Shown: in pieces, positions 3,224 through 53,577 of the stretch
Layout: each line of letters opens with the position of its first letter
Position numbering within the stretch: position 1 is the stretch's first letter
Origin: a bacterium
GTDB lineage: Bacteria; Patescibacteriota; CPR2; UBA1875; JAJYID01
DNA length: 64,000 nucleotides
NCBI GenBank assembly: GCA_030647205.1
Contig: JAUSJO010000008.1
Span: forward strand, 28,770 to 92,769
Direction: 5' to 3'
Translations under genes and position numbers: made by a program
The notes under the pieces: generated by a model
Seen by the model: only the letters and a program-made list of their open reading frames with translations
Databases searched by the model: none
Told to the model about the DNA's origin: nothing

Positions 3224-3295
3224 TATTTTGTGAGTTTAAACATAAACATTGAACTTGAAAACCTGTAAGATAATTTCAAAGAAAAGAGGAATATA

Positions 3296-3724
3296 ATGGA
3301 AGAAGTCAAAAAATATGCTGACAGTATCTCTGCTGAACTTTCGGAGAAGAAAGGCGTCTGGACGCTTACAAAGGTAGTTGCGGAAAGAAAGGCATTCTTA
3401 AGCAAAAAGAAACTGGAGTATATCGCCAAGTTTAGATTTGATGATGAGAACAAAGAGATTCGATTTACGGAAATGCTCAAAGAGTCGGGCTCGGGTATTT
3501 CTAGCGGCGATATGGATGATATGTCTCCCGGTTTTGGATTTAAGGCGGGAACCTACAAAACGGGCATGGGCGGGAGAGAAGGTAGTATAAAAGAGCAGTC
3601 AAATCTTTTCGGCAAGGATTATAGCTATGAATTTAAATTCGAAGAAATTAGAGCAAAAATAGAAGAAATCGCAAAAAATAAAGGTTATGACTTCAAATAT
3701 CAAATAACGTCAAAAGGTCTTTAA
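3296..3724 (+). CDS. Hypothetical protein
   Basis: 142-aa ORF with an SD-like 'aaagaggaa' upstream. No recognisable domain. Confidence 0.5.
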   Translation: MEEVKKYADSISAELSEKKGVWTLTKVVAERKAFLSKKKLEYIAKFRFDDENKEIRFTEMLKESGSGISSGDMDDMSPGFGFKAGTYKTGMGGREGSIKEQSNLFGKDYSYEFKFEEIRAKIEEIAKNKGYDFKYQITSKGL

Positions 3725-3737
3725 GAAAGGAGTAGTC

Positions 3738-4523: not shown

Positions 4524-4850
4524 TATTCTGCTATAGTCCCCTCGTCTTGTCATTCCCGTGGAGGCGGGAATCCAGTCTTGAAATAGTTTCTACTTCTTTA
4601 GAATTCATTTATTACTTTTTTAGAAAAAGTAATACAAAAATCGCGACTTATGGCGGCGACAAAGTGTCGGATTTCAGTTCGCTCAGGTTTGAAAAAATGA
4701 ACTCGCTAGAACGCTCAGACAACATTATTTTCAAATCTTCGTTCACTTTATCCTCGCTTTGTCTTCGATAGTCGCAGGAGACCATTTGCCCGTAGACTTC
4801 CTTTGAAAAAATCATGCGGATTGAGAATTTTTCTGTGATGGCGGGAGGTA
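4524..4850 (+). repeat. Intergenic repeat copy B (~325 nt), homologous to 2506-2870
   Basis: It aligns with copy A with one ~40-nt indel. Its hairpin ttacttttt-tag-aaaaagtaa (4612-4632) preserves the copy-A stem by compensatory changes (cc/gg to tt/aa). Its 5' hairpin cattcccg-N5-cgggaatc is analogous to the copy-A gtcattccgg...ccggaatc hairpin. Confidence 0.75.
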
Positions 4851-35828: not shown

Positions 35829-37385
35829 ATGACCGAGGAGCAGAAAAAACAGCTTCAGACTCAACTTTGGAATATCGCCAACGAACTCCGAGGCAAAATG
35901 AATGCCGATGAGTTTCGTGACTATATTCTTGGCTTTATTTTCTATAAGTATCTTTCAGAAAAAATGCATCTTTATGCCAACGAAGTTCTTGAAGCAGACA
36001 AGATAGATTACACCGATATCAAAGAGAACACAGAAGATGGCAAAAAAATTATTGAAGTTATAAAAAAAGAATCCATAGATAAGCTTGGCTATTTTCTCAA
36101 ACCCTCAGAACTTTTTCATTCTCTGGTGGAGAGAGACGCGAACTCAAATGACATCATCGAAGATCTAGAGAGAATCCTTGGCAATATAGAAAGAAGTACT
36201 ATGGGGACTGACAGCGAGGACGATTTTGATAAACTTTTCTCAGAGCTAGACCTAAACAACTCAAAACTTGGTAGATCTGTTCATGATCGAAGTCAGCTTA
36301 TAGGGAAAGTTCTTTCTCATCTTGATAAGATAAATTTCTTTTTGGAAGATTCAAGGATAGATGTCCTTGGGGATGCTTATGAATATCTAATTGGTCAGTT
36401 TGCCAGTGGCGCCGGGAAGAAAGCAGGGGAATTCTATACTCCTCAAGAAGTTTCAGAAGTTCTAGCAAAACTTGTAACTTCGGGGAAAAAACATTTGAAA
36501 AGTGTTTACGATCCAACTTGCGGTTCTGGCTCATTGCTTTTGAGAGTTGCCAGATATGTCGACGATGTTGGCTTTTTCTATGGACAAGAAATGAACCACA
36601 CTACATACAACCTTGCTCGTATGAACATGATTCTTCACGATGTTCGTTATGACAGATTCAATATCAGGCAGGAAGACACTCTGGAGCATCCACAACATTT
36701 AGAAGAACGATTTGAAGCAATTGTTGCCAACCCACCATTTGGCGCCGAATGGTCAGCTCATCAGACATTTTTGAATGATGATCGCTTTAGCCAGTATGGC
36801 AGACTAGCGCCAAAGAAGAAGGCCGACTATGCCTTTATAGAACACATGATTTATCAGCTGGATGATAATGGAACCATGGCAACCGTTATGCCTCATGGCG
36901 TGCTTTTCCGTGGTGCTGCAGAGGGACACATTCGCGAGCATCTCATCAAAGAAAAGAATTATCTAGATGCTGTTATCGGACTTCCTGCAAATCTCTTTTA
37001 CGGCACGAGTATTTCTGCTTGTCTCCTAGTTTTTCAAAAATGCCGTAAGAACTCTGATAATGTTCTCTTTATAGATGCAAGCAAACATTTTGTAAAAGGC
37101 AAGAACCAAAACAAACTTCAGGCCGAAGACATAGAAAAGATTATCAAAACTTATCGAGAAAGAAAAGTAGAGGATAAATACAGTTATGTGGCAAGTCTCA
37201 AGGAAATAGCCGAAAATGACTACAACCTGAACATTCCTATTTACGTAGACACTTTTGAAGAGGAAGAGTTGATAGATCTCGCAGAAGTTACTCAAGAAAT
37301 AAAAAAGATTGATAAAGAGATGGTGGGTGTTGATAAAAAGATAGCAGAATATTGTAAGGAGATCGGCATCAATCCGCCGTTTTAA
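35829..37385 (+). CDS. hsdM: Type I restriction-modification system DNA methyltransferase subunit M
   Basis: N-terminal HsdM_N region. SAM motif I 'DPTCGSGSLL' and catalytic motif IV 'IVANPPFGAEW' (NPPF) of N6-adenine MTases. Confidence 0.9.
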   Translation: MTEEQKKQLQTQLWNIANELRGKMNADEFRDYILGFIFYKYLSEKMHLYANEVLEADKIDYTDIKENTEDGKKIIEVIKKESIDKLGYFLKPSELFHSLVERDANSNDIIEDLERILGNIERSTMGTDSEDDFDKLFSELDLNNSKLGRSVHDRSQLIGKVLSHLDKINFFLEDSRIDVLGDAYEYLIGQFASGAGKKAGEFYTPQEVSEVLAKLVTSGKKHLKSVYDPTCGSGSLLLRVARYVDDVGFFYGQEMNHTTYNLARMNMILHDVRYDRFNIRQEDTLEHPQHLEERFEAIVANPPFGAEWSAHQTFLNDDRFSQYGRLAPKKKADYAFIEHMIYQLDDNGTMATVMPHGVLFRGAAEGHIREHLIKEKNYLDAVIGLPANLFYGTSISACLLVFQKCRKNSDNVLFIDASKHFVKGKNQNKLQAEDIEKIIKTYRERKVEDKYSYVASLKEIAENDYNLNIPIYVDTFEEEELIDLAEVTQEIKKIDKEMVGVDKKIAEYCKEIGINPPF

Positions 37386-37389
37386 TTTT

Positions 37390-38244
37390 ATGCTTTCTGA
37401 AGATGAAATAGTTAAAGAGATGATAAAGGCGAACGCGACGGAAGCGTATAGGGACGCCGCTCAACCAGCGGTTAGAGTAGTCGGGCAGTCAATAGCGCAA
37501 TGTGTGTCATTATTTGTAACACCCATCGGCAGGATGGCGGCGATTTTAGAAAAAAATCTTCACCTTTATTTAGATAAACTTGATAGATATAAAGAGAAAG
37601 AACTTATATCTCCAGATGTTAGAATTCTAGTGCCGATACTGGAAAAGTTGAGGTATACGGAAGACATTGTAGTGGCAGAATATTACGCAGAGATACTAGC
37701 AAAGGCATCTACCAAGGAAAATTCAAAAAGGGTGCTGATCTCATTTATCGAAATTTTAAATAGATTAAGCTCTGACGAGATCAAAATATTAGAGTATATA
37801 AACTCTAACGATAATATTGTTGATTTTGAACCAATAACTGAAGAGGAGAGCGGACAACTGAACTTACCTGCTGGTTTTTGCAAAGCTGTTATTAAGGGTG
37901 CGGTTCCCGTTATTGATATTAAAATTGTTCAAAGTGGCACTACAGGTTTTTCGATTGCCGGCAGAAACTGCAATTTATTGCCCGATCTAATTAATCTTTC
38001 TGGGCCAAGGAATATTGATTCATATGTAGACAATATGATCTCACTCGGTCTCCTGGAGCGACCACATGACAGATCTTTCGCAAACAAGAAAATTTATTCA
38101 AAGCTTGAAAATGACCCAAATGTTATAGAGTTACAAAAGGGCTTAGCGAAAAGCCAAAGGATTGAGTTTGATAGGGCACAATTGGCAATAACTAGTTTAG
38201 GCGTAAAACTTTTAGAACTTTGCTCAACAGGGGTTAAGCCATGA
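37390..38244 (+). CDS. Hypothetical protein embedded between hsdM and hsdS (possible Abi-like accessory defense gene)
   Basis: 284-aa ORF translationally coupled on both sides (a 4-nt gap from hsdM and an ATGA overlap with hsdS). It has no TRD-like repeats and no confidently recognised domain. Confidence 0.55.
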   Translation: MLSEDEIVKEMIKANATEAYRDAAQPAVRVVGQSIAQCVSLFVTPIGRMAAILEKNLHLYLDKLDRYKEKELISPDVRILVPILEKLRYTEDIVVAEYYAEILAKASTKENSKRVLISFIEILNRLSSDEIKILEYINSNDNIVDFEPITEEESGQLNLPAGFCKAVIKGAVPVIDIKIVQSGTTGFSIAGRNCNLLPDLINLSGPRNIDSYVDNMISLGLLERPHDRSFANKKIYSKLENDPNVIELQKGLAKSQRIEFDRAQLAITSLGVKLLELCSTGVKP

Positions 38245-39488
38245 TGGTGGAAACAACAAATGTTCCCAAACTTAGGTTTAAGGAATTTAAGGATGCGTGG
38301 CAAACTCCTACGTTTGGTACTGTATTTGAACGTGTAACTACGAAAAACAAAGAAAATAACCAAAATATCCTAACAATTTCAGCTCAGGATGGACTAATCG
38401 GCCAAGATAAATTTTTTACTAAACTAGTCTCCGCTAAGGATGTGACTGGCTATTATCTATTACGAAAAAATGACTTTGCTTACAATAAGAGTTATTCAAA
38501 GGGTTACCCCATGGGGGCGATAAAGAGACTTTTCAAAGATAACGCTGGAGTTGTATCAACTTTGTACATCTGCTTTAGATCGAAAGAACCGAGAAGCATT
38601 ATATTTTATGAGCAGTATTTTGATGCTGGGAAATTAAATATTGAGATTGAAAAGATAGCGCAAGAAGGGGCAAGGAATCATGGCTTATTAAACATGAGTG
38701 TTGTTGATTTTTTTAAAATGTCTATCTTAAGACCAAACATTACAGAACAAGAAAAGATTGCGGGGTTTTTGGGGAGTGTTGATGAGAAAATTGGGAAATT
38801 GGAAGAGAAGAAAAAGCAGTTTGAGAAATATAAAAAAGGTGTAATGCAGGCGATTTTCTCGCAAAAAATCCGCTTTAAAGATAAGACTGGAATGGAATTT
38901 CCGGATTGGGAGGAAAAGGAATTGGGTGAAATCGGTAAGACATACAACGGACTAACCGGTAAATCTGCGGAAGACTTTGGAAAAGGGTTTCCATATATTA
39001 CTTATAAGCAAATTTTTGACGGCTCTAATGTAGATGTTTCAAAATGTAGTTTTGTGAACATTAAAGAAAATGAAGCACAAAGTAAAGCGAAGAAAGGTGA
39101 CGTGTTTTTTACTACATCTTCTGAGACGCCCCTAGAAGTTGGTTTTTCCTCAGTCTTGTTAGAAGATGTTGAGGATGTGTATCTTAATAGTTTTTGTTTC
39201 GGATTTAGACTGTTTGATAATAAAAAAACTTTGCCATATTTTCTAAAGTTCTTATTTAGAAGCGAGTATTTTAGAAGAAAAACAATAAGATTAGCACAAG
39301 GTAGTACTAGATATAATATCTCAAAAATTGGTCTTTTAAAAACAATTATTCAAATACCGGATTCAGAAGAACAGGGGAAAATCGCCGAATTTTTGACAAG
39401 CTTGGATGATAAAATTGATTTAATAAATAAGGAGTTGGGGAAGGTTAAAGAATTCAAAAAAGCCCTTCTCCAGCAGATGTTTGTGTGA
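38241..39488 (+). CDS. hsdS: Type I restriction-modification system specificity subunit S
   Basis: Two target-recognition domains separated by the conserved coiled-coil repeats ('...KKKQFEKYKKGVMQAIFSQKIRF' and '...ELGKVKEFKKALLQQMF'). Confidence 0.85.
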   Translation: MMVETTNVPKLRFKEFKDAWQTPTFGTVFERVTTKNKENNQNILTISAQDGLIGQDKFFTKLVSAKDVTGYYLLRKNDFAYNKSYSKGYPMGAIKRLFKDNAGVVSTLYICFRSKEPRSIIFYEQYFDAGKLNIEIEKIAQEGARNHGLLNMSVVDFFKMSILRPNITEQEKIAGFLGSVDEKIGKLEEKKKQFEKYKKGVMQAIFSQKIRFKDKTGMEFPDWEEKELGEIGKTYNGLTGKSAEDFGKGFPYITYKQIFDGSNVDVSKCSFVNIKENEAQSKAKKGDVFFTTSSETPLEVGFSSVLLEDVEDVYLNSFCFGFRLFDNKKTLPYFLKFLFRSEYFRRKTIRLAQGSTRYNISKIGLLKTIIQIPDSEEQGKIAEFLTSLDDKIDLINKELGKVKEFKKALLQQMFV

Positions 39489-41128
39489 TGATTATCAAAC
39501 TTTTAAATAATTCTGATAAAAACCTATTTGTTGGTTTGGCTGGTCCTGGAACTGGGAAAAGCCATACTTTTAAGACTATTATTAATTCAGGTGAATTTAA
39601 GGGCAAGAAGATACTTATATTATCGTTTATTAACAAATTAGTTAACGACCTAGAAAGAGAGTTCGATGATTTTGACAATGTTAGAGTTTCCACACTACAT
39701 TCGTTTGCGTTGCAGAAGTACAAGAACTTGTTTCGTGAAACAACAATAGAGCTCGAACAAGACCTAGACGGTTTGATAAGTGAAGATTATTTCTATATTA
39801 ATAAAGAGAAAATTAGTTACGAAGCAAGGCTATGCGAGGGTAATCTTGATAAAGAGGAGGAGGAGTTTTATTTGGGGCGGGCTGAATTTTATAGCAATGA
39901 AGGGAAACTTTATTCTTTCAACTCAATAATTCATGCAGTCAACAGTATCTTCTCAAACAATAACGATAAGATCCCAGATGAATATGACTTAATACTCGTA
40001 GATGAGTTTCAGGACTTTAATCAACTAGAATATAACTTGATCAAGTTGTTGAACAAGAAAAATAAAGTTATCTTAGTCGGTGACGATGATCAGTCCTTGT
40101 ATGACTGGAAGCACGCACGGCCAGAGCTAATACGTGCACTATATAATCATGAAGGAACAGGTGAATTTTCGTTAGACTTCTGCTACAGATGCACACAAGT
40201 TGTTGTTGACGCGGTAAATAGCCTGATATCAAACGCGAAGAGTGATGGTTACCTTCAAGATAGAGCAGATGAGAAGAAATTTCTATATCCCACAGAAAGG
40301 ACTGATGACAAGAATGAAATAAGCGCAAAACATTCTTGTATCGATTTTGTTTCGGGGGTGAGTGGCCATCAATTGATATACCAGCTAGCGACAAGAATAC
40401 GAAAAGAAGTAGAAGAACATAATGGCGGCAGAGTACTTGTATTAGTTCCATCTTTTCTTAAACAATCAATTTATGAAGGTCTTTCTGGGGAGGGTTTTAA
40501 TGTAGTTGAGTTTGAATTATTTGGGAATGAAGGACGCAATAAGATAAAACACAAGTATCTAATTGAGGCATTTAAAACGTTAGCTATAAGAAAAACAGAT
40601 AACTTAATGTTAAGGAAGATAATTCCGTTATATCTATCGGACTCTGAAATTAGAAAACTAATAATAAATTGTGATAATCTCCAAAAGAAAATATGGTACG
40701 TTTTGGATGGAGAAACAAAAGTTCGCATTGAGCAAGATATAGCATTGTTTAAAAAAGCAAAGCAAGGAAAGACTGAACTAACGGCCGATGAGTTGAAGAG
40801 ATTTAGTGAAATATTTAACCTAAAGAATTTAATATCAAAGATGATAAAAGGTTTTGCGCCGAATACTCGGGGCGCTATAGAGGTTGAGATGACAACAGTG
40901 ATGAGCTCTAAAGGACTTTCGGCTGATTTCGTGTATTATATTGGGGTTGATGATTATATTATGCTTGATAAAGAAACAGGCGAGCTAACTGACCAAAAAA
41001 TCTGTGAGTTTCTAGTTGGGATAACAAGAGCGAAGAAAAAACTAACATTATTCTCAGCAAATGAGGGCGAGCCAGTAATACTGAAATTTATTGATAGTAA
41101 ATTCGTGAGGAGAAGTAAAACCAAATGA
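39485..41128 (+). CDS. UvrD/PcrA-like SF1 helicase-family protein embedded between hsdS and hsdR
   Basis: Walker A 'GLAGPGTGKSHTF', motif II 'LILVDEFQDFNQ', motif III 'VLVGDDDQSLYDW', and the C-terminal UvrD_C-like 'GLSADFVYYIGVDD...VGITRAKKKLTLF'. At 547 aa it is a minimal UvrD-like core. It is overlap-coupled to both neighbours. Confidence 0.75.
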   Translation: MMIIKLLNNSDKNLFVGLAGPGTGKSHTFKTIINSGEFKGKKILILSFINKLVNDLEREFDDFDNVRVSTLHSFALQKYKNLFRETTIELEQDLDGLISEDYFYINKEKISYEARLCEGNLDKEEEEFYLGRAEFYSNEGKLYSFNSIIHAVNSIFSNNNDKIPDEYDLILVDEFQDFNQLEYNLIKLLNKKNKVILVGDDDQSLYDWKHARPELIRALYNHEGTGEFSLDFCYRCTQVVVDAVNSLISNAKSDGYLQDRADEKKFLYPTERTDDKNEISAKHSCIDFVSGVSGHQLIYQLATRIRKEVEEHNGGRVLVLVPSFLKQSIYEGLSGEGFNVVEFELFGNEGRNKIKHKYLIEAFKTLAIRKTDNLMLRKIIPLYLSDSEIRKLIINCDNLQKKIWYVLDGETKVRIEQDIALFKKAKQGKTELTADELKRFSEIFNLKNLISKMIKGFAPNTRGAIEVEMTTVMSSKGLSADFVYYIGVDDYIMLDKETGELTDQKICEFLVGITRAKKKLTLFSANEGEPVILKFIDSKFVRRSKTK

Positions 41129-43986
41129 CAGCACAATCAGAACAAGCATTAGAGAATAGTTTAGTCAAACAGCTCGAGGGGATGAGATACGAGCGGGTTG
41201 TTATTTATGACGAGGAAATGCTCTTTGTGAACCTGAAGATTCAGCTGGAAAAACACAATGGTATAAAGCTGAGCGATAAAGAGTTTGAGAGGATTCTAAA
41301 TCATTTGGACAAAGGGAATGTTTTTGATCGGGCGAAGATATTGCGAGACAAGATGCATCTGGTTCGAGATGATGGCATGAGTGCATACATAGAGTTTCTA
41401 AACACTCGAGAGTGGTGCCAGAACGAGTTTCAGGTGGCAAATCAGATCACAAATACGGGTGAGTATAAGACTAGGTATGATGTAACTATTTTGATCAACG
41501 GACTCCCTCTGGTTCAGATAGAGCTAAAAAGAAGAGGACTGGAGCTAAAGGAAGCTTTCAACCAAGTAAATCGATATCGCCGGCACTCATACACCGCTGC
41601 TCGTGGTCTTTTCCAGTACATTCAAATCTTTGTTATTAGCAACGGAGTAAATACAAAGTACTATGCGAACACGGTGAGCTACATGACAGACAAGAAGCAG
41701 TCCTTCAAACAAACATTTTTCTGGGCCAATAAGAGTAATAAGAACATAAAAAAGCTGGATGATTTTGCCAAGATATTTCTGGAGAGATGCCATCTGGCGA
41801 AGATGATTACAAAGTACACAGTACTTTCTGAAGCGGACAAGATTCTGATGGTTTTGCGACCTTATCAGTACTATGCGGTTGAAGCGATAGTTGATCGAGT
41901 AAAGAACTCGAAAAAGAATGGTTATATCTGGCACACCACTGGAAGCGGCAAGACATTGACAGCATTTAAGGCGAGCCAGACCTTGATAGATTCACCCGAT
42001 GTCTATAAAGTCGTTTTTGTCGTCGATCGGAACGATTTGGATTACCAGACGATAAAAGAGTTTAATAAGTTCAGAGCGGGAAGTGTTGACGGAACTGATA
42101 ATACTCGGATGCTGGTGAAGCAGTTCGAAGATGAGACGAATGACGCAAAACTGATCGTGACGACCATACAAAAGATTAATACTGCTATCAGTAAAGAACG
42201 ACATCTGAAGAAAATGGAAAAGCATAAAGACAAGAAAATAGTCTTTATTTTCGATGAGTGCCACAGGAGCCAGTTTGGTGAGACGCACAAAAGGATTACT
42301 CAGTATTTTCAGAATTATCAAATGTTTGGCTTTACCGGTACACCGATATTCGCCGAGAACGCTGTGGGTTCTGGGGCTGACAAAAAGACAACTGCCCAGC
42401 TTTTCGATGAGTGTCTGCATAAATATGTGATTACCGATGCGATATCTGATGAAAATGTTTTACGATTTCTAGTAGAGTATGTGGGTAGATACAGGAGAAA
42501 GGCAGATAGTGAGAACGACATAGATATAGAGGTTGAAGGGATTGATACAAAAGAGCTCATGGAATCGTCTAAGAGGATTGAAAAGATTACCGACTACATA
42601 ATCGCAAACCATGATAGAAAAACTCATTCCAAAGAATTTACGGCTATGTTTTGTACCTCGAGTATTGATGTTTTGACAAGATATTATGAAACTTTCAGGA
42701 AGAAGAAAGAAGCGGGAGAGCATAATCTAAAAATCGCCACAATCTTTAGTTTTGCCGCAAATGAGGAAGATAAAGACGCTGATGGAATGATAGGTGAGGC
42801 GGATGTTGATATAGAAAAGGACCAGCCTATCAATAAACACTCAAGGGATAAGCTCGAAGAATACATCGGTGATTACAATAAAATGTTTGGTACTAACTTC
42901 ACAACAAAAGACAACACCAGCTTTTATAACTATTATAAAAATATTGCACAGAGAGTGAAGGAAAGGGACATTGATATTTTAATAGTGGTAAACATGTTTC
43001 TGACCGGATTTGACGCGAAAACTTTAAATACTCTATATGTTGATAAAAACTTGCGATATCACGGACTGATCCAGGCTTACTCAAGGACAAACAGAATATT
43101 AAATGAACGTAAGTCGCATGGCAACATTGTAGTTTTTAGAAACTTAAAGAAGGCGACCGACCGAGCCGTAGCCCTCTTTAGCAATAAAGATGCAAAGGAA
43201 ATAATATTTTTAGAACCATATAAAAAATATGTTGAGCAATTCAATGGTGTTTTGCTCGACTTAAGGAATTTGGCACCCACACCGGACTATGTGGATGATC
43301 TAGTTAGTGAAACAGATCAGCTAGTTTTCGTAACTACATTTAGAGAATTAACTCGTTTGAAAAATGTTTTAACTACTTTTGCTGACTTTTCTTTCTCAGA
43401 TACAAGGATATCGGAGCAAGAATTTGAGGATTACAAAAGTAAGTATCTAGATATATATGACAAAGTTAAGAGCGATAATGAGCATGAAAAAGTTTCTATC
43501 TTAGATGATGTTGATTTTGAAATTGAGTTAATAAGAAGGGATGAAATAAACATTGATTACATCTTGAGACTCCTTGCTTTATATATTGACGCAGATGAAA
43601 CAGAGCGTAAGCGTATCGTGAAAAACGTTTCAGATATCATGTCAGGAGATTTAGCTCTAAGAAGCAAGAAGGAATTAATTGAAAAGTTCATAGAAGAGAA
43701 CATTCCTGAAATTAAAGATTCGACAGAAGTGGATGGCGCTTTTGAAGAGTTTTGGCGAGAAGAACAATTGAAAGAATTTGAGAAGATTTGTAAAGAAGAA
43801 GGCTTAATGGATGAAATGCTGCAGAAGGTAATAGATAGATATTTATACACGGGGCTTAAGCCAAAAAGGCATGATTTGGCAAAAACATTGAAAACCCAGC
43901 CAAAAGTTCTAGAGAGGGACAATATAATCAAAAGGATTGGGAAGAAAGTAGATAAATTCATCGAAACGTTTTTGGATGGGGTGTAA
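41125..43986 (+). CDS. hsdR: Type I restriction enzyme endonuclease/helicase subunit R
   Basis: HsdR_N nuclease region, SF2 motor motifs 'HTTGSGKTLTAF' (motif I) and 'IFDECHRSQFG' (DEAH-like motif II), and a long C-terminal helical domain. 953 aa. Confidence 0.9.
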   Translation: MTAQSEQALENSLVKQLEGMRYERVVIYDEEMLFVNLKIQLEKHNGIKLSDKEFERILNHLDKGNVFDRAKILRDKMHLVRDDGMSAYIEFLNTREWCQNEFQVANQITNTGEYKTRYDVTILINGLPLVQIELKRRGLELKEAFNQVNRYRRHSYTAARGLFQYIQIFVISNGVNTKYYANTVSYMTDKKQSFKQTFFWANKSNKNIKKLDDFAKIFLERCHLAKMITKYTVLSEADKILMVLRPYQYYAVEAIVDRVKNSKKNGYIWHTTGSGKTLTAFKASQTLIDSPDVYKVVFVVDRNDLDYQTIKEFNKFRAGSVDGTDNTRMLVKQFEDETNDAKLIVTTIQKINTAISKERHLKKMEKHKDKKIVFIFDECHRSQFGETHKRITQYFQNYQMFGFTGTPIFAENAVGSGADKKTTAQLFDECLHKYVITDAISDENVLRFLVEYVGRYRRKADSENDIDIEVEGIDTKELMESSKRIEKITDYIIANHDRKTHSKEFTAMFCTSSIDVLTRYYETFRKKKEAGEHNLKIATIFSFAANEEDKDADGMIGEADVDIEKDQPINKHSRDKLEEYIGDYNKMFGTNFTTKDNTSFYNYYKNIAQRVKERDIDILIVVNMFLTGFDAKTLNTLYVDKNLRYHGLIQAYSRTNRILNERKSHGNIVVFRNLKKATDRAVALFSNKDAKEIIFLEPYKKYVEQFNGVLLDLRNLAPTPDYVDDLVSETDQLVFVTTFRELTRLKNVLTTFADFSFSDTRISEQEFEDYKSKYLDIYDKVKSDNEHEKVSILDDVDFEIELIRRDEINIDYILRLLALYIDADETERKRIVKNVSDIMSGDLALRSKKELIEKFIEENIPEIKDSTEVDGAFEEFWREEQLKEFEKICKEEGLMDEMLQKVIDRYLYTGLKPKRHDLAKTLKTQPKVLERDNIIKRIGKKVDKFIETFLDGV

Positions 43987-43995
43987 AAATTTCTA

Positions 43996-44128
43996 AGCAA
44001 GCTCTCAGCTTTATCTTCCTAAATAGGTAAATTTAAAAATCTACCGATTTTTTGTGCTAGAATATTCTTATGTCAAATGCATTTCGGAAAATCATTGAGT
44101 TTATAAAGGCGAAAAAGATAAAATTATG
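43996..44128 (+). repeat. Direct repeat DR1 (~133 bp) flanking the fic gene; it contains a truncated duplicate of the promoter and first 17 codons of the 45453 gene
   Basis: The 49-bp core 'gctagaatattcttatgtcaaatgcatttcggaaaatcattgagtttata' (44056-44104) is identical to 45439-45487. The flanks are about 80% identical. Confidence 0.85.
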
Positions 44129-44129
44129 A
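44070..44129 (+). pseudogene. Duplicated 5' fragment (19 codons plus stop) of the downstream secreted-protein gene
   Basis: It translates MSNAFRKIIEFIKAKKIKL*, compared with MSNAFRKIIEFIEAKKILVIV... at 45453. Confidence 0.4.
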
Positions 44130-44186
44130 GTAAGTTAACTGAAATTAGTTTTTGAGCTCAAATTTTGAATAATTAGTATATCCTTC

Positions 44187-44222
44187 TTGACAAATAGTAT
44201 ACTAAAACGTAAAATAGTATAC
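44187..44222 (+). promoter_or_regulatory. Candidate fic promoter (TTGACA-17-TAAAAT) overlapped by two GTATAC palindromes
   Basis: 'atagtatac' repeats at 44194-44202 and 44214-44222, 20 bp apart (two helical turns). One copy lies in the spacer and one over the -10/+1 region. Confidence 0.5.
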
Positions 44223-44246
44223 ATAAATAAATTAAAGTAAACTATA

Positions 44247-45380
44247 ATGAAAATTGAAATAGGTAAATTCGTAAGCCAACCAAGAGGGTATAAGTCCTTT
44301 GTCACCAATCCCTTTCCTCCTAAGGGTATTTTTGGCTTTCCTGCTAAAACGCTTGTGAAGGCAGATAAGGCTACTAGGCTTGTCGGTAAGCTGGATGGTG
44401 TTACACACGAGTTGCCGGATGTGGACTTCTTCCTATATATGTTTATTATTAAGGATGCTGAGGCATCCTCTCAAATAGAAGGAACAAAAGCAACAATCGT
44501 TGATGTTTTAGAGGCCAATGCTGGGATAGCGCCAAAAGAGACAGATTCAAGCGATATTGACTTTTATATTGAGGCCTTAAATTATGGGATTGTAAGAATA
44601 AAAAAGTTACCCCTGTCCTTGAGATTTATTAGAGAGTTACACTCTAAACTTATGACGGGTGCAAGAGCGACTCATTTTTCAGATCCTGGCAACTTTCGAA
44701 ATTCTCAAAACTGGATAGGTGGTGCTACGTTGTCTGATGCGAGTTACGTTCCACCAGCTGTTACTGATATGAATCCAGCTCTCAGTGATTTGGAAAAATT
44801 TTTACACAATGAGGAAGTATTGCCATTAATCCAGGCAGCTATTGCTCATGCTCAGTTTGAGACGATTCATCCTTTTCTTGATGGTAATGGTAGAACCGGT
44901 CGACTTCTTATCACCCTTTTGTTATTGGAAAGGAAGTTATTAGATAAACCGGTATTATTTCTTTCTTGGTATTTTAAAAAACATCAAAAGGTCTATTATC
45001 AGAAACTCGGCGATTACCATGATGGTAAGGTGGATGAATGGGTTAATTTTTTCCTAGATGGGGTGATCGAAACCGCCGAAGATTCCATTAGAATCAGCAA
45101 GAAGATTTTTCAATTAAGGGAAGAAGATATGTGCAAGATTCATGCCCTTGGCAAACGAGAAGCTGAGAGTGGCATTTTGGTATTGAGAAATTTATTTAAG
45201 ATGCCAATCATAAATTCCAGAATAGTTATGGGATGGACCGGCTTCACTAGAGCAGGATCTATAAAACTGATAGAGCGCTTTGTAAGTCTTGGGATATTGA
45301 TCGAGAGAAAAACAGAAGGTAAGGAAAAAGTTTATTCATATGTAAATTATTTAAAAGCGTTTACTAGGGATAACAAATAA
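44247..45380 (+). CDS. fic: Fic family protein (class II, with an internal inhibitory motif)
   Basis: Fic motif 'HPFLDGNGRTGRLL' (HPFx[DE]GNGRxxR). The N-terminal 'SSQIEGTKAT' fits the [ST]xxxE[GN] auto-inhibitory helix. The C-terminal domain is winged-helix-like. Confidence 0.9.
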   Translation: MKIEIGKFVSQPRGYKSFVTNPFPPKGIFGFPAKTLVKADKATRLVGKLDGVTHELPDVDFFLYMFIIKDAEASSQIEGTKATIVDVLEANAGIAPKETDSSDIDFYIEALNYGIVRIKKLPLSLRFIRELHSKLMTGARATHFSDPGNFRNSQNWIGGATLSDASYVPPAVTDMNPALSDLEKFLHNEEVLPLIQAAIAHAQFETIHPFLDGNGRTGRLLITLLLLERKLLDKPVLFLSWYFKKHQKVYYQKLGDYHDGKVDEWVNFFLDGVIETAEDSIRISKKIFQLREEDMCKIHALGKREAESGILVLRNLFKMPIINSRIVMGWTGFTRAGSIKLIERFVSLGILIERKTEGKEKVYSYVNYLKAFTRDNK

Positions 45381-45389
45381 TAAAGTAAT

Positions 45390-45508
45390 TAGCAAACTCT
45401 CAGCTTTATCTCTTATTACTCATTAAAAACAATTTTGCGCTAGAATATTCTTATGTCAAATGCATTTCGGAAAATCATTGAGTTTATAGAGGCGAAGAAG
45501 ATATTGGT
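45390..45508 (+). repeat. Direct repeat DR2 (partner of DR1); it overlaps the true promoter and 5' end of the 45453 gene
   Basis: See DR1. The offset between the identical cores is 1383 bp. Confidence 0.85.
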
Positions 45509-46304
45509 TATTGTTTGTGCCTTGGCGTTAGTCATTATTGTCATTGCAACAACTGTGGTTTTGATCAAAAGATCTCCAGAGAAAAAATCAGAAGAGTTTA
45601 GAGATGTTCCAAAAATTGCCGAAACAAGGGTTGATGAAAGTGCCAGTCAGTGGCCGAGTACAAGCGCGAAGTACATTACCGCTGTGCCGGTAGACCTGAG
45701 CCAGATACAAAGTATTTCTAAGTATCGCAGTTGTGCGGGGCATGACTTTGCCGGGTATAGTTTTGAGCAGGTACAGGAAGCTAATCGCTCAATGAAGCAC
45801 TATGTCTATCCGACTCCGCAGTTTCAGGGGACGACTGACAAGGTCAAGGTGTTTGCTCCTTTTGACGGAGTGGTTTCAAAAGTTGAGCTTGAGAGTGAGG
45901 TAGCCGGTCAGCCCGGCAAGCGCCCTAAAACAGGAAATAGCATCACTTTTTCAACTGAGGTTGATAAAAATGTTGGTTTTGAGTTTAGTCACGTCTACTT
46001 CGCGGGAGATTTTAAAGTTGGTGACAAGGTGAAGGCGGGCGAACTGATCGGTTATGCCGCTCTAGGTGACAAGGGCAACGATTTTGACCTCGTACTTTCC
46101 GGGACGCGCCTAAAGAACGAGAAGGCATATGGTAGCGCTTTTGACCACATGACAGATAGCGTCCTCGCAGAGTTTGCCAAGTATGGTGTAACGCCTGAAA
46201 ATAATAAGTTTACTAAAGAATATCGAGATGCTAATCCCTGTGACTTCACTCAGCAACAACAAAGAGGTCGTACGGGCGCTGACTGGCTCCAGCTAAAACA
46301 CTGA
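45453..46304 (+). CDS. Membrane-anchored or secreted hypothetical protein
   Basis: N-terminal TM 'ILVIVCALALVIIVIATTVVLI'. 283 aa. The ATG lies only about 6 nt after a TAGAAT -10-like box, so the mRNA may be leaderless. Confidence 0.6.
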   Translation: MSNAFRKIIEFIEAKKILVIVCALALVIIVIATTVVLIKRSPEKKSEEFRDVPKIAETRVDESASQWPSTSAKYITAVPVDLSQIQSISKYRSCAGHDFAGYSFEQVQEANRSMKHYVYPTPQFQGTTDKVKVFAPFDGVVSKVELESEVAGQPGKRPKTGNSITFSTEVDKNVGFEFSHVYFAGDFKVGDKVKAGELIGYAALGDKGNDFDLVLSGTRLKNEKAYGSAFDHMTDSVLAEFAKYGVTPENNKFTKEYRDANPCDFTQQQQRGRTGADWLQLKH

Positions 46305-46403
46305 CATTCCAATATTCTCAAGAATGTAAGAATGTCGTTTTTTTGTTTCTGTATACTTGTTTCGCCACACATATTCCAATATTCTTGAGAATGTAAGAAT
46401 ATT
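46296..46403 (+). promoter_or_regulatory. Two copies of a ~32-bp palindromic operator-like repeat upstream of arsR
   Basis: 'acattccaatattctcaagaatgtaagaatgt' (46305-46336) and 'atattccaatattcttgagaatgtaagaatatt' (46371-46403). Each contains the inverted repeats attct-N3-agaat and acattc...gaatgt. A third copy lies at 46686-46718. Confidence 0.6.
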
Positions 46404-46416
46404 TTTTGGAGGGATT

Positions 46417-46686
46417 ATGAAGAAAACACCAAGACAACTTGAAAGACATTTAAAGGGTCTGGCAAATCATAGGCGCATTGAGATCCTGGACTGTATCGCC
46501 AGAAATGACGGGATAATACTAGAGTCAATCGCCGAGCACTTGGAGTGTAATGTAAAAACAATTTCAGAGCACACAAGAAGGTTGTATCAGGCTGGACTCG
46601 TAAACAAAAAGTATCACGGAAGGGCAGTAATGCACTCACTTTCTCCATATGGTAAGCAGTTTTATAGCTTCATAAAAAAGTTCTAA
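46417..46686 (+). CDS. ArsR/SmtB family transcriptional regulator
   Basis: 'LKGLANHRRIEILDCIARNDGIILESIAEHLECNVKTISEHTRRLYQAGLVNKKYHGRAVMHSL' has the ArsR wHTH layout. The start is set to the ATG at 46417, after SD 'ggaggg'; the longer ORF from 46357 would read through the operator repeats. Confidence 0.75.
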   Translation: MKKTPRQLERHLKGLANHRRIEILDCIARNDGIILESIAEHLECNVKTISEHTRRLYQAGLVNKKYHGRAVMHSLSPYGKQFYSFIKKF

Positions 46687-46718
46687 CATTCCAACATTCT
46701 GGAGAATGTGAGAATGTT
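46686..46718 (+). promoter_or_regulatory. Third copy of the arsR-associated palindromic repeat, downstream of arsR
   Basis: 'acattccaacattctggagaatgtgagaatgtt'. Confidence 0.5.
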
Positions 46719-46849
46719 AGTTCTAAGTAAGATTTTAGTCGTATCTTGAAAGTTTATTGTAAAAACGCTCAATGAAAAACATCGAGCATATGTTAGTATT
46801 TGTATAATATATGTTGGTTTCTTTAAACTATAAGTGAAGGGAGATAAAA

Positions 46850-47089
46850 ATGACTGAAGAAGAAGACAAAGAAAAAAGAAAAGAGCGTATTGATGAACAA
46901 GAGAGAGCAAAAGAGAGGGCAAGCGAAAGAGAAGTGGAGCGGATCAATATACAAGAAAGAGAAAAGCATCGATTGAATGAGAAAGAAGCGGATCGGATTG
47001 CAACAAAAGAGCGTGAAATACATCGATTAAATGAAAAAGAGGCAGAGCGAATTCGTATTAAAGAGCGGGATAGAAATCGCCGCCGCTGA
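46850..47089 (+). CDS. Highly charged repetitive (E/R/K-rich) small protein
   Basis: SD 'gaagggag'. 79 aa built of ER(I/E)xxKERExxRxNEKEA-type repeats. It is followed by the terminator at 47115-47150. The repetitive composition makes the coding call uncertain. Confidence 0.4.
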   Translation: MTEEEDKEKRKERIDEQERAKERASEREVERINIQEREKHRLNEKEADRIATKEREIHRLNEKEAERIRIKERDRNRRR

Positions 47090-48372: not shown

Positions 48373-49356
48373 GTGATGAACATTGATACGAAGGCCCGCG
48401 CCGTTGGATGCATGATAGGAGCTGCCTATGGTGATGCTCTTGGCGCTCCAGTCGAGTTTATGAGCTATGAGGAGATAGTTGCCAAGCATGGTGCCGAAGG
48501 TATAGATGTGCCGGATGTACGCTGGGAAGGTCTGCCGCCTGGGATTATCACTGATGATACTCAGATGGCTATGGCGACCGCAAACGGTATACTCGACTCT
48601 CCCGGTCAAGGAGACGTACTTGAGAATATCTTCAAAAGGTATCTCGAGTGGAGAGAGTATATCAGGCACAATCGAAGAGGTGCCGGCAAAACCTGCAGGG
48701 AGTCACTTGACTCCGGTGTCATGGGAACGATCGAAAAACCGCTGAACGAAGGCAAAGGATGCGGTGGAGTGATGAGAGCCCACCCTGTTGGTATCGCCTT
48801 TCGGGAAAGTCCGGAAAGGGCTTTTGAGATCGGTATGCGTTCCGGAGCGATCACCCACGGTACACCCGAGGCGTATGTGCCATCAGGAGTCATCGCGAGT
48901 ATCGTCTCGCATATCTTCTTCGGAGCGACTCTTGAAGGGGCAGCGAAAATGGCTCTCGTTCAAGCCGAAAACCTGGGCGAGGAAAAAAGCCGGGAAACAG
49001 TCAATTTCCTGAAAATGGCTCTCGATGCAGCAACCGATCAAGCGGTTCAGACTATTCACGATAAGCTGTCTGTGCCTAACGCAACAATGAAAGGCGGCGG
49101 TTGGCTCGGATATGACGCTCTGGCCATCGGCTTATATGCCGCGAGGGTCAGCCTGGATGATCCGGTCAAAGCTGTAAAAATCGCAGTTAACCACAGTGGT
49201 GACAGCGACTCTACGGGCGACATCACCGGCGCAATGATGGGCGCAATCTTTGGTCCGGAGCCATTCCTTAAAGAACTGGACAAGACCGGGATAGCTCTCG
49301 AGCACAGAGAAGAGCTCATTTCCATGGGTGAACGTCTTGCTATCTGGCAACCGTAA
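48373..49356 (+). CDS. ADP-ribosylglycohydrolase family protein (DraG/ARH-like)
   Basis: 'GCMIGAAYGDALGAPVEF' and 'ITDDTQMAMA' are the family signatures. The C-terminus has the Asp-rich metal site 'NHSGDSDSTGDITGAMMG'. A candidate promoter (TTGACT, 16-nt spacer, TACAAT) lies at about 48323-48351. Confidence 0.85.
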   Translation: MMNIDTKARAVGCMIGAAYGDALGAPVEFMSYEEIVAKHGAEGIDVPDVRWEGLPPGIITDDTQMAMATANGILDSPGQGDVLENIFKRYLEWREYIRHNRRGAGKTCRESLDSGVMGTIEKPLNEGKGCGGVMRAHPVGIAFRESPERAFEIGMRSGAITHGTPEAYVPSGVIASIVSHIFFGATLEGAAKMALVQAENLGEEKSRETVNFLKMALDAATDQAVQTIHDKLSVPNATMKGGGWLGYDALAIGLYAARVSLDDPVKAVKIAVNHSGDSDSTGDITGAMMGAIFGPEPFLKELDKTGIALEHREELISMGERLAIWQP

Positions 49357-49365
49357 GCCAAACTA

Positions 49366-49400
49366 CTCCCCCACGTAACATAAGTGGGGGAGTTTTCTAT
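49366..49400 (+). terminator. Rho-independent terminator
   Basis: ctcccccac-gtaacataa-gtgggggag followed by TTTTCTATTT. Confidence 0.7.
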
Positions 49401-49464
49401 TTAGTCTAAAATCTTGATAGAACAGCAAAATGAGGTATACTAAAGCTATAATAAGGAGTTTGTT

Positions 49465-49734
49465 ATGTCAGGAGAAAACTTTACTTTAGAAGAAGCGAAA
49501 GAAATGGGCGAAAGCCTAGGAATAGAGTGGGACATGTTTGACGTTGAGCAGTTTCAAATGGGTATGAATGTAGAGCTTGAACATGGAACGATGCACAGGG
49601 TATCAAATATTACTAATGACAATCCTGAGATGACCGCAAAGATTGCACTTGCCCACCTAAATGAAATCCGCGACTACTATACTCGTCTTGAAGCTATGGA
49701 AAAAGAAGGCGAAGCATTCTGGGAAGGGAAATAG
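49465..49734 (+). CDS. Small hypothetical protein (DUF5661-like)
   Basis: 89 aa with SD 'aaggag'. 'EEAKEMGESLGIEWD...MGMNVELEHG' resembles the DUF5661 family. Confidence 0.45.
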   Translation: MSGENFTLEEAKEMGESLGIEWDMFDVEQFQMGMNVELEHGTMHRVSNITNDNPEMTAKIALAHLNEIRDYYTRLEAMEKEGEAFWEGK

Positions 49735-49738
49735 TTCT

Positions 49739-50500
49739 ATGAAAATAACACTTCTTGGGACTGGTTCATTTGTTTCGGATCTTGAACATATGGGGCCGGG
49801 GTATCTCTTGGAAACGGACGATAAAAAAATTCTGGTTGATACAGGTTGTGGGGTCCAGATACAGCTCATTAAACTGGGTATAAACATTTATGACCTTGAT
49901 TATATATTTATCACTCACTTTCATCCCGATCACACAGTGGAACTCTACTCTATGTTGGTCAGAAGGTATATGCTCTCTGCTTTTTATGGAAAGGATCCAA
50001 GGCCTCTATATGTTTACGGCCCAAAAGGGATAGCTGAGTTTATAAAAGGAATCGCAAAAATACATCAACTGGATCTAGTTCCTCAATTTAAAGAAATATA
50101 TTTTGAAGAGCTGGTTGATAAAATGAAAGAGCTGGACAACTTTAGTGTAGAAGCGTTTGCGGTTGATCATTTAAACTCCGACGCGGTTTCGTACAGGTTT
50201 CAGGCGGAAGGCAAAAAAGTTGTTTTTTCCGGAGATACTAAGCTTTGCGAAGGGATTCAAAAAGCGATACAGGATGTCGACCTCTTCATTACTGACTGTT
50301 CCGCCCCAAAAGATAATCCTATCGAACCGCATCTTTTGACAACTGAGATAGGTGAAATTTCTAAAAAAGCAAATGTAAAAAAAGTAGTTTTATCACATTT
50401 ACTCCCTCTGGGCTACGACACAGACCTGGTCTCTGAAGTGAAAGAAAAGTTTGATGGTGAGGTAGTTTTAGGTAAAGATTTGATGGAACTAGAGGTCTAG
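49739..50500 (+). CDS. MBL-fold metallo-hydrolase
   Basis: 'FITHFHPDHT' (HxHxDH), with downstream His/Asp ligands ('AVDHLNSD', 'VLSHLLP'). The start is trimmed to the ATG at 49739 (MKITLLGTGSF). Confidence 0.85.
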   Translation: MKITLLGTGSFVSDLEHMGPGYLLETDDKKILVDTGCGVQIQLIKLGINIYDLDYIFITHFHPDHTVELYSMLVRRYMLSAFYGKDPRPLYVYGPKGIAEFIKGIAKIHQLDLVPQFKEIYFEELVDKMKELDNFSVEAFAVDHLNSDAVSYRFQAEGKKVVFSGDTKLCEGIQKAIQDVDLFITDCSAPKDNPIEPHLLTTEIGEISKKANVKKVVLSHLLPLGYDTDLVSEVKEKFDGEVVLGKDLMELEV

Positions 50501-50862
50501 TGAAAATCTGGAATTTGAGAATTAGGAAAGAAGATAAAGGAATTTTTGACCGGATTAAGTCCGGTGAGAAAACCATAGAAACACGGCCGCTAAATGCTCC
50601 GGATTCAAAGAAAGACTATTCACAGATAGCATCTGGCGATAAACTTATATTTTCTTGTGACGGTGAAAAGTTGTATAAAAATGTCGAGGCAGTAAGGATC
50701 TATAAAGATTTTGAACAATATTTAGATACGGAAGATTTGGAAAATATTTTAGGGAAGGGAATGACCAAGGAAGTTGCCAGAGATATCCATTACGGTTTCC
50801 CAGGATGCAAAGAACGGCTTGAAAAGTATGGTATTATAGCTATGGATATGGAGCAAAAATGA
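50500..50862 (+). CDS. ASCH (PUA-like) domain protein
   Basis: 120 aa. 'IFDRIKSGEKTIETRP...GDKLIFS' fits ASCH. Overlap-coupled to the MBL gene. Confidence 0.55.
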   Translation: MKIWNLRIRKEDKGIFDRIKSGEKTIETRPLNAPDSKKDYSQIASGDKLIFSCDGEKLYKNVEAVRIYKDFEQYLDTEDLENILGKGMTKEVARDIHYGFPGCKERLEKYGIIAMDMEQK

Positions 50863-52127
50863 ACGAAGGTGGCAAATATAACCCGGCAGAAGGCTCAGAC
50901 GTATCTGGGCACAATGATATAGATGAAAACAATGAACTCGCCGATGAAAAGATTGAGAGAAGTTTTCTTGTTTCAGGGTTGCCGGAAAAGTTAGAAAATT
51001 ACGATTACTATGAGGTGGAGGAGACTTCATCTTCGGGAAAACCTAGGAAAATTTACAGAGGAGATAGTTTGGGGAAGGGGGATTATGTTAAAGTCAGCGG
51101 AATATATGTCAGGAAAGACTATCTAGAGCAGCCGTCTCATATCCCTAACAAAAAAGCGATCAGGGATAGATATGAAATACCATATGAAGATCCAAATCTG
51201 GGAGAAATAACCATTCATTTAGATATTTTCAAAGAACCTCTCAATAACAAGGGTGCCGTAATGGCTAATGTTGACTTTGCTAGCGAAGAAGACGCCAAGG
51301 CCTTCACACCGCCAGACTGGTTTACAGAGGAAACAACAGAAGAGATGGCAGAGGATATGAAGAAAGGGGTATCTATATTTTCGGGGACACTTATTCCTCA
51401 AAGAGCTATTCTTGGTGAGGCGCTAGGCAGGTTAAAACAGTCTGATTTTTATACAAAATCGGCTAAAACACAAGCCGATATCAAAAACAAGGACTTTGAT
51501 TGGGGGCAAGAAGATCAAAGAGTTAGGGATTTTAGAGACCAGGTAGAGGCCGAGAAATCTTTGATGGAGAAGAAGGATGGGTTAAGCTTTGATGAGCTCA
51601 AGAGAGGTGATGTTTTTATCTTTGAGACAGTTAGAGATATAAAGTTTGAGGCGGAAAAATATCTTGATAGGTTAGAGCAAAGAATCAATAATCTGCAAGA
51701 AGGTGATCCTGCAAGAAGGAAAATGACAGAACTGCTCAACCGAGGCAGGGTCTTGCTTGAATATGCCGATCTTAAACCGGTTGGCGATGGGGAGAGGCAG
51801 CATGATTTTGATACATTAAGAGATGCCATCAGTGAATACCCAGACTTTTTCGAGGCCCAAGATGTTAGCGGTAGATATAGAGTTGAGGTTACGGGGAAAA
51901 GGAAGCTGCGTGTCAGGGGAGGAGAAAAAGAAGACTGTTTACTAGTAAAAATGGACAGCGATAGTCGGGGAGAAGATGGTCTCACGGCTAGAATCGCAAA
52001 AAAAGACTTTAGTCTGGAGAACTTATCCGAGAGTTTGGGTAGGATTTACTTCGAGAATGTTAAACGGGGTGGAGAACCGCATGCGGGCGGGATGTCGATA
52101 CCGAGAATTGGCAGAGTATATAAGTAG
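50859..52127 (+). CDS. Hypothetical protein with an N-terminal degenerate CYTH-like motif
   Basis: Residues ~30-45, 'DEKIERSFLVSGLPEKL', mirror the CYTH N-terminal strand 'EIERKFLVxxLPxxL', but the first Glu and the Lys of ExExK are replaced (K...S). The 422-aa body is charged and helical. Confidence 0.55.
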   Translation: MNEGGKYNPAEGSDVSGHNDIDENNELADEKIERSFLVSGLPEKLENYDYYEVEETSSSGKPRKIYRGDSLGKGDYVKVSGIYVRKDYLEQPSHIPNKKAIRDRYEIPYEDPNLGEITIHLDIFKEPLNNKGAVMANVDFASEEDAKAFTPPDWFTEETTEEMAEDMKKGVSIFSGTLIPQRAILGEALGRLKQSDFYTKSAKTQADIKNKDFDWGQEDQRVRDFRDQVEAEKSLMEKKDGLSFDELKRGDVFIFETVRDIKFEAEKYLDRLEQRINNLQEGDPARRKMTELLNRGRVLLEYADLKPVGDGERQHDFDTLRDAISEYPDFFEAQDVSGRYRVEVTGKRKLRVRGGEKEDCLLVKMDSDSRGEDGLTARIAKKDFSLENLSESLGRIYFENVKRGGEPHAGGMSIPRIGRVYK

Positions 52128-52152
52128 AACTTATATTGCATTGCCTGAAGTA

Positions 52153-52180
52153 TTGACAAAATCAATTTATTTGGTATAAT
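52153..52180 (+). promoter_or_regulatory. Sigma70-like promoter (TTGACA-16-TATAAT) with a ~130-nt leader before the AAA+ gene
   Basis: TTGACA at 52153-52158 and TATAAT at 52175-52180. Confidence 0.55.
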
Positions 52181-52308
52181 TGATTAGTTTTAAACTGCTT
52201 ATTTTTAAGTCAGGTTTTATGCCCTTTTAAAAGTGAAAAGGAGGAATCATCTACTAGCTAGCCAAAGTTTTCTTTATTGTCAATCCAACAAAAGATTGGA
52301 GCCCAAAA

Positions 52309-53562: not shown

Positions 53563-53577
53563 GGAAAAAGGAGAGTC

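Follow-up and report, generated by a model that had tools for sequence, protein, structure and literature searches.

A SoFic-type fic gene between two copies of its neighbour's promoter and 5′ end at the edge of a Patescibacteria defence island

In a 64,000-nt stretch of DNA (hereafter the window; positions 28,770 to 92,769 of contig JAUSJO010000008.1, assembly GCA_030647205.1) from a metagenome-assembled genome (MAG) of an uncultured member of the Patescibacteria/candidate phyla radiation (CPR), a gene that by its sequence is a class II Fic of the SoFic-type defence family (fic; protein MDO8508017.1, locus tag Q7S53_05650) lies between two direct copies of the promoter and first codons of the gene that follows it (gene X; protein MDO8508018.1). 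We read the fic unit as a self-contained, probably autoregulated SoFic-type gene and the repeats as the scar of a one-ended homologous recombination event, a reading to which we give a probability of roughly 0.55. This reading is preferred because one joint of the unit is seamless (from the downstream repeat into X), the other is abrupt (44120|44121), no recombinase accompanies the unit, and what has been duplicated is the native flank of X. The locus had been picked out by an earlier model-made note (the original prediction), which described direct repeats bracketing Fic. All parts of the locus from hsdR to X are on the plus strand.

The two repeats, DR1 at 43987-44120 and DR2 at 45382-45503, were recognized both by reading the sequence and by a repeat scan as two direct copies of 122-134 nt that flank one gene. 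The scan returned a 71-nt pair (44050-44120/45433-45503, 96% identity) and a 30-nt pair (43987-44016/45382-45411, 83%). An exact core of 50 nt (44056-44105 = 45439-45488) is found just twice in the window, as compared to 0.00 occurrences expected from shuffled sequence, and the left block (AGCAARCTCTCAGCTTTATCT, block 1; 43996-44016 in DR1) is also found twice, as compared to 0.03 in shuffles. The repeats are real and chance is excluded as their source. The original prediction was thus right about the repeats and placed them to within a few bases, but gave a 49-nt core and let the homology run on to 44128/45508, whereas it stops at 44120/45503. Its description of the flanks as about 80% identical hides a mosaic, in which block 1 is 95% identical (20/21), the spacer is 18% identical (6/33) with a further 12-nt indel (the extra nucleotides are in DR1, not DR2), and block 2 (44050-44120 in DR1) is 96% identical (68/71). 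The diagnostic mismatches around the core (44055, T/C; 44106, A/G) are 52 nt apart.

DR1 is an upstream copy of the X promoter and 5′ end. Its block 2 holds an extended -10 element (TGTGCTAGAAT), with the -10 hexamer TAGAAT at 44058-44063 inside the core, followed by an ATG at 44070 and 17 codons that match gene X, as the original prediction had noted. Two further codons and a TGA (44127-44129) complete a dead stub open reading frame (ORF; 44070-44129, MSNAFRKIIEFIKAKKIKL). Homology to X is lost abruptly at the 44120|44121 joint, and a stop-rich filler of 51 nt (44121-44171), whose sequence is not conserved at other fic loci, separates this joint from the conserved fic module. The fic start codon is 126 nt after the end of DR1, DR2 starts 2 nt after the fic stop codon, and fic is the sole real ORF between the repeats. 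DR2 serves X as its working promoter and 5′ end, continuing into the gene (start at 45453) without a seam. The TGn of the extended -10 is kept in DR1 but has been lost in DR2 (TGTGC -> TGCGC). The core also contains two perfect 10-nt palindromes, of which AGAATATTCT overlaps the -10 and AAATGCATTT makes up codons 2-5 of X, and its minus strand carries promoter-like sites of the form TTGACA-16/18-(C/A)AAAAT.

The product of gene X (45453-46304) is anchored in the membrane and contains a distant M23 (LytM/lysostaphin-like) peptidase domain; the gene is widespread in Patescibacteria. The closest relative of X for which DNA was in hand (locus L007) is 78% identical in amino acids and 79% in nucleotides over the coding sequence, and there the region upstream of X is single-copy on an unbroken k=31 contig. 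This region has the same parts in the same arrangement, with block 1, a DR2-like spacer, an extended -10 (TGTGGTAGAAT), an ATG 6 nt further on and an identical first 36 nt of coding sequence; 49 of the 50 core nucleotides are conserved. A more distant relative (L008, 63% amino acid identity to X) retains TGTGCTAGAAT-6-ATG, and both L007 and L008 keep the TGn that DR2 has lost. From L007 and L008 it follows that what is repeated in the window is the native promoter and 5′ end of X. With the ATG only 6 nt after the -10, the X mRNA is probably leaderless. Since the core is conserved between species, the identity of the DR1 and DR2 cores is by itself no proof of a recent event. A further relative of X, on a 3,956-bp JGI/IMG contig (P0361; 90% amino acid identity), has first 17 residues identical to those of the DR1 stub (MSNAFRKIIEFIKAKKI), unlike X itself, which has E13. 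Separately, block 1 in L007 can be read in frame as ...KKTLSFIS*, possibly a coding relic of an upstream gene, with just 47 nt to judge by.

The repeat is not a common intergenic element, a possibility that the original prediction had named as grounds for its own rejection: there are two copies in the window and none in IMG/VR, and the N-terminal coding pattern of the stub is absent from JGI metagenome contigs. A known RNA element was considered and dropped for want of an Rfam match in the repeat, as was a phage attachment site, since the core was not found in IMG/VR and no viral relative of X turned up. A place for X in a defence hotspot shared with distant relatives was rejected too, because the genes around X vary there and do not belong to defence systems.

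Divergence between DR1 and DR2 is strongly non-uniform (spacer 6/33 versus block 2 68/71, Fisher p = 5e-16), which argues against a simple target-site duplication decaying neutrally. It parallels the pattern of constraint between orthologues. Using L007 as a third sequence, the changes private to each copy could be polarized. DR1 has 13 private substitutions and the 12-nt indel in the 47 nt to the left of the core and none in the 71-nt block, while DR2 has one private change to the left of the core and two to the right. To the left, DR2 groups with L007 (13:1), and to the right DR1 does (2:0; Fisher p = 0.025, with only two right-hand sites). Such discordance is the pattern expected if an exchange ran through the core, in which case one haplotype would have been DR1-left with DR2-right and the other, L007-like, DR2-left with DR1-right.

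Hallmarks of mobile elements are missing from the unit. No recombinase, integrase or transposase was found in it or among the ORFs scanned at 23.5-56.4 kb. There are no terminal inverted repeats, as the best inverted pair (15/19 complementary) is not terminal and is one of 31 chance-level pairs. No attC-like imperfect palindrome follows fic, where the sequence is the X promoter, and IntI has no match among the proteins scanned. A tRNA-derived attachment site was rejected, as neither the window nor the other loci with repeats contain tRNAs. The original prediction had spoken of target duplication. In the transposon sense this is not supported: direct repeats around an inserted gene are indeed what a transposon or insertion sequence (IS) leaves behind, but such repeats measure 2-15 nt and are identical when fresh, whereas those in the window measure 122-134 nt, are mosaic in identity, and come without a transposase or terminal inverted repeats.

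The fic gene itself (44247-45380) encodes a protein of 377 amino acids with Fic_N and Fic domains (Pfam). It matches the PADLOC SoFic model over its full length (E = 1.5e-105; model positions 5-360 of 361 against residues 14-374), and alignment to solved SoFic structures extends to residue 376 (E about 1e-29) with both functional motifs aligned. The catalytic motif HxFx(D/E)GNGRxxR is present as HPFLDGNGRTGR (H208 to R219), aligned to HPFIDGNGRTGR in SoFic and invariant in 19 homologues. Class II Fic proteins carry the inhibitory motif (S/T)xxxE(G/N) on the Fic chain itself, ahead of the core on the N-terminal side (PMC12249575). The window protein has SSQIEG at residues 74-79 (S74-x3-E78-G79), inside Fic_N and aligned to SSEIEN of SoFic, so that the class II assignment and the internal inhibitory helix of the original prediction are borne out. 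A C-terminal winged helix-turn-helix receives no Pfam call in the window protein and is suggested by the SoFic alignment. SoFic is a published class II Fic that acts as a single-gene anti-phage system (PMC12249575), and according to a 2026 preprint it AMPylates EF-Tu (bioRxiv 10.64898/2026.07.09.737422). By homology, the window protein would be an AMP-transferase that its own N-terminal inhibitory helix restrains, and it is predicted to stop translation in infected cells.

Similarity to SoFic of Shewanella oneidensis, as defined in PADLOC/DefenseFinder, extends to protein length, to the layout of Fic_N, Fic core and C-terminal region, to the inhibitory (S/T)xxxE(G/N) and catalytic HPFxDGNGRxGR motifs, and to the location in a defence island. 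There are also differences. The best alignment of the window protein to S. oneidensis SoFic reaches just 106 bits (E about 1e-29), and no small antitoxin-like gene (AS1) follows the window fic. The NCBIfam equivalog NF046030 scores 143.8 bits, far below its 550-bit cut-off. Judged by sequence, the protein is a member of the architecture family and not an orthologue-level equivalog of S. oneidensis SoFic. The family as a whole is very large and strongly conserved across phyla, with >8,000 matches; among the matches listed, the best are mostly about 62-66% identical. The gene is a new member of a known defence family and, SoFic being an established system, adds little by itself.

Expression of fic appears to be provided for within the unit. 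The promoter proposed by the original prediction, TTGACA-17-TAAAAT, was found at 44187-44215 (TTGACA at 44187, TAAAAT at 44215), matches 11 of 12 positions and is the best promoter-like site in the region. It lies in a promoter and operator segment (44172-44246) with three TAGTATAY boxes (44174, 44195 and 44215) that are spaced 20-21 nt apart around the -35 and -10 elements, one of them a perfect palindrome (TAGTATACTA). The boxes are kept in the closest fic loci, namely L010 (around 7929) and L013-L016. SoFic has been reported to bind its own promoter <=100 bp from the start codon (bioRxiv 10.64898/2026.07.09.737422), and the window array, <=75 nt from the start, matches this placement. In line with this report, we consider the boxes to be probably an operator for the DNA-binding domain of the Fic protein itself, allowing autoregulation. 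A scan of the region found no terminator-like sites between fic and either of its neighbours, hsdR and X.

On its other side, the unit adjoins hsdR (41125-43986), the last gene of a type I restriction-modification (R-M) operon (Pfam HSDR_N/SWI2_SNF2/EcoR124_C; PADLOC REase_I, 1071 bits). DR1 begins at 43987, the nucleotide after hsdR ends, in keeping with the earlier placement of the Fic unit directly after this gene. In the closest hsdR relative (L026, 96% amino acid identity), DNA homology ends 5-9 nt past the hsdR stop codon and a convergent DUF2196 gene follows. Homology to other fic loci (L010, L014) runs from about 44172 to the fic stop codon and no further. From these module edges it follows that two unrelated cargo genes abut the same flank edge, within about 8 nt.

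The second suggestion of the original prediction, a move by recombination between repeats, is plausible and is the one preferred here. In the history we favour, an additive exchange would have taken place between two variants of one locus, hsdR|flank and fic|flank, that differed in their cargo. The fic module would have come from a related genome with fic against this flank, bringing along an attached copy of the X promoter and 5′ end on a fragment that ended inside X at codon 17. Homologous exchange would have occurred in or near the 50-nt core, and the junction of X codon 17 with 44121 would be an illegitimate joint. Two routes could lead to this structure. The incoming fragment may have circularized and entered by a single crossover in the conserved core (Campbell-type), or a flank-anchored fragment may have been closed by an illegitimate joint, as in homology-facilitated illegitimate recombination. 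Either way, both cargo genes would be kept, X would remain intact behind DR2, and a 19-codon dead stub would be left behind an intact DR1 promoter. This promoter should read through into fic, and RecA-dependent recombination between the near-identical blocks of 50-71 nt would be predicted to delete fic as a 1,383-bp circle. As far as the sequence goes, the model is compatible with either resident partner, hsdR-flank or fic-flank.

Incoming DNA has been shown to take both routes (PMC3240628). These share with the window a duplicated chromosomal segment flanking an insert, one seamless and one non-homologous joint, independence from a dedicated recombinase, and a reversibility that is predicted for the window. 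Unlike those cases, the window case is a natural one that is reconstructed from sequence, and its donor arrangement was not found in relatives.

Several observations weigh against this history. No relative was found with the donor arrangement (fic directly upstream of X, lacking DR1), and exact look-ups together with genome-contig and metagenome scans found no relative with an empty site (hsdR-flank-X). The closest fic relatives (76-78%) have unrelated genes downstream. The crossover signal depends on just two sites to the right of the core, and the lack of private changes in DR1 block 2 could alternatively be due to selection on the DR1 promoter or to gene conversion. The meeting of both cargo genes with the flank at nearly the same point obliges the model to assume a shared hotspot edge. 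Lastly, on a k=31 assembly graph alone, an integrated unit looks the same as an empty site with a separate circle.

Several searches stand behind these negatives. Neither X, with its alternative starts, nor the ArsR-like gene downstream gave a match in exact look-ups, and a scan of genome contigs with X returned only relatives of 61-63% identity in unrelated contexts. Scanning metagenomes with a degenerate N-terminal pattern gave no match, and with Fic gave 8 distant loci. The nearest X relative has a single-copy flank, yet with another sequence upstream of it, and the nearest fic and hsdR relatives are in other contexts and have no repeat. It is therefore not the case that all relatives carry fic at this position without repeats, the other outcome that would have counted against the original prediction.

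One alternative is that the duplication was made in situ. A foreign fragment of filler and fic would have been joined illegitimately at two staggered points, one past the hsdR stop and one at X codon 17, thereby duplicating 134 nt, with the copies diverging later; joining across sister chromosomes or replication-fork repair are possible routes. The geometry fits exactly, and the left edge would be explained by selection, as survivors keep hsdR, the whole X promoter and X. The lengths of repeats at other SoFic loci (76-425 nt, described below) would also suit random joints. Duplications that arise through pairing between chromatids are known from transformation (Johnston et al. 2013, PMC3784515), where incoming DNA likewise bridges two positions or chromatids, although the duplications of that merodiploidy are 100-900 kb with IS-repeat borders, as compared to 0.13 kb around a 1.26-kb insert in the window. 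Against this alternative is the distribution of changes, since 13 private substitutions and a 12-nt indel in the left 47 nt of DR1, next to 71 nt with none, is not neutral decay. To produce it, either DR1 must have been under selection or gene conversion must have been limited to the very part that is also conserved between species. The DR2 spacer, moreover, is nearer to L007 than to DR1. We regard an in-situ duplication as unlikely, while still giving it some weight. The mirror history, in which fic was ancestrally upstream of X and the R-M island arrived with the hsdR end and a partial flank, with its illegitimate joint 126 nt upstream of fic, should produce the same scar. It gains from the low G+C and island-like character of the whole of 32-44 kb and from the mosaic nature of the R-M operon relative to L026 (an AAA_13 gene in place of the UvrD-like helicase of the window). 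Nothing separates it from the preferred history, no X-type flank follows hsdR in its closest relative, and we hold the mirror order to be improbable.

Site-specific integration would make the unit a cis-mobilisable cassette (CIME/IMEX-like), with the 50-nt core and its two perfect 10-nt palindromes as the att site and an integrase encoded elsewhere. Indeed, direct repeats with an exact core (50 nt) and less similar arms on both sides of a unit are the classic attL/attR picture, and the target gene would get back its 5′ end from an arm carried by the element. Integrative elements that carry a replacement gene end also leave their target intact between gene-end direct repeats, and one of the phage loci described below (L030) resembles an accretion array of the kind known for integrative and conjugative elements (ICE) and CIME. 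What speaks against it, besides the lack of an integrase both within the unit and in the scan of ORFs at 23.5-56.4 kb, is that L007 conserves the core to the same degree within an ordinary promoter and 5′ coding sequence, so that its identity needs no recombinase. Moreover, the putative arm breaks off at a codon inside X and is followed by 51 nt of filler, and the repeats at other SoFic loci share neither sequence nor length. This alternative is very improbable. So is an assembly artefact or population mixture, in which the contig would thread a loop of the graph while the real molecules are an empty site and a separate fic molecule, or two strains. In the Logan contigs of run SRR13727527, the hsdR contig ends at window position 44085 and the fic contig spans 44076-45468. 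These contig ends are exact k=31 graph break points at the 50-nt exact repeat, and all junction k-mers therefore exist in the raw reads, which lends the repeats independent support at the level of reads. The k=31 graph is indeed a loop on a 50-nt node, and a hybrid empty path would bring no new k-mers. However, a 50-nt repeat with mismatches so spaced is resolved by assembly at k of 55 or more or by 150-nt reads, no branch occurs in the fic contig along its 1,393 nt, and a circle of 1.38 kb bearing fic only is implausible as a replicon.

Repeats also bracket SoFic genes elsewhere. Among 76 testable IMG/VR loci, four independent ones (L030, L045, L073 = L078, and L086) have a repeat-bracketed fic, while none of 12 other loci in metagenomes and MAGs (7 distinct fic contexts) does. 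These repeats are 76-425 nt long and unrelated in sequence. In the clearest case, L030 (= L190; IMGVR_UViG_3300010280_000442, 145-3754), the order is orf79, a 160-nt repeat, a Phd-ParE toxin-antitoxin pair, a 425-nt repeat, the SoFic-like gene and a second 425-nt repeat, which continues into an intact minus-strand gene. Each L030 copy starts 4-11 nt past the preceding stop codon, and the common left edge is a terminator hairpin; no related phage with an empty site was found for this locus. The segment duplicated in L073 comprises the last 25 codons of a convergent gene, and its downstream copy starts 10 nt past the fic stop codon. As a control, 0 of 80 hsdR loci were bracketed (5/86 versus 0/80, Fisher p = 0.06, two-sided). 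Of the roughly 13 independent repeat families present in 974 kb around these SoFic loci, 4 bracket fic, as compared to 5-10% expected (binomial p 0.003-0.03); some of the other repeat pairs in these regions are tandem paralogues. The recurrence of flank duplication at SoFic loci is suggestive but falls short of being established.

The scar is of a known general kind, and only its possible generality around SoFic and other accessory genes would go beyond the routine. Its value is as a clean natural example of a single defence gene added at the edge of an island without mobile-element machinery and with the neighbouring gene left intact. If the recurrence on phage contigs holds, flank duplications could mark recent gains of defence genes as well as genes that can be lost by simple recombination. 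A bolder proposal, which we consider unlikely, is that SoFic modules, each made up of promoter, operator and gene and ending at the stop codon, are recombinase-free cassettes that spread and stack at defence or moron hotspots by means of a carried piece of flank acting as a portable homology arm. Every cassette gained would then be marked by a flank duplicated in part (76-425 nt) and could be lost again through homologous recombination. On this view, defence islands in genomes that lack obvious mobile elements, for example those of Patescibacteria, would grow in one general way, exemplified by the window, L030 and L073. These bacteria depend on DNA uptake and have few classical mobile elements.

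The island of which fic forms the distal end encodes a GmrSD-type enzyme, a Cas4-like PD-(D/E)XK nuclease, HsdM, Abi_alpha (PDC-S47), HsdS, a UvrD/GajB-like helicase, HsdR and Fic, and G+C is low from about 32 to 45.4 kb. Its type I R-M operon (35829-43986) has two extra genes, with Abi_alpha between hsdM and hsdS and the UvrD/GajB-like helicase between hsdS and hsdR. L026 has an AAA_13 ATPase where the window has this helicase, so that cargo inside the R-M operon has been swapped between relatives.

Downstream of X, an ArsR/SmtB-like gene (46357-46686) is flanked by copies of an inverted-repeat motif, ATTCCAAYATTCT..AGAATGT.AGAAT, which occurs three times (46299-46340, 46366-46407 and 46681-46722), has an operator-like appearance and shares AATATTCT with the palindrome of the X promoter. 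An ORF of 79 amino acids (46850-47089) is built of 54-nt tandem units that encode EREKHRLNEKEA-like repeats. The genes at 48373-54726 have the look of conflict systems, including an ADP-ribosylglycohydrolase, a metallo-beta-lactamase-fold protein with a weak match to Apyc1 (anti-Pycsar), and a bpMoxR ATPase beside a VWA protein. Far upstream, two ORF-free intergenic stretches on the same strand (2633-2830 and 4605-4800) are about 76% identical over 150-200 nt and bracket three small genes (2852-3223, 3296-3724 and 3738-4523). The pair has no Rfam match at a relaxed threshold, and could represent paralogous small RNAs or another flank-duplication scar.

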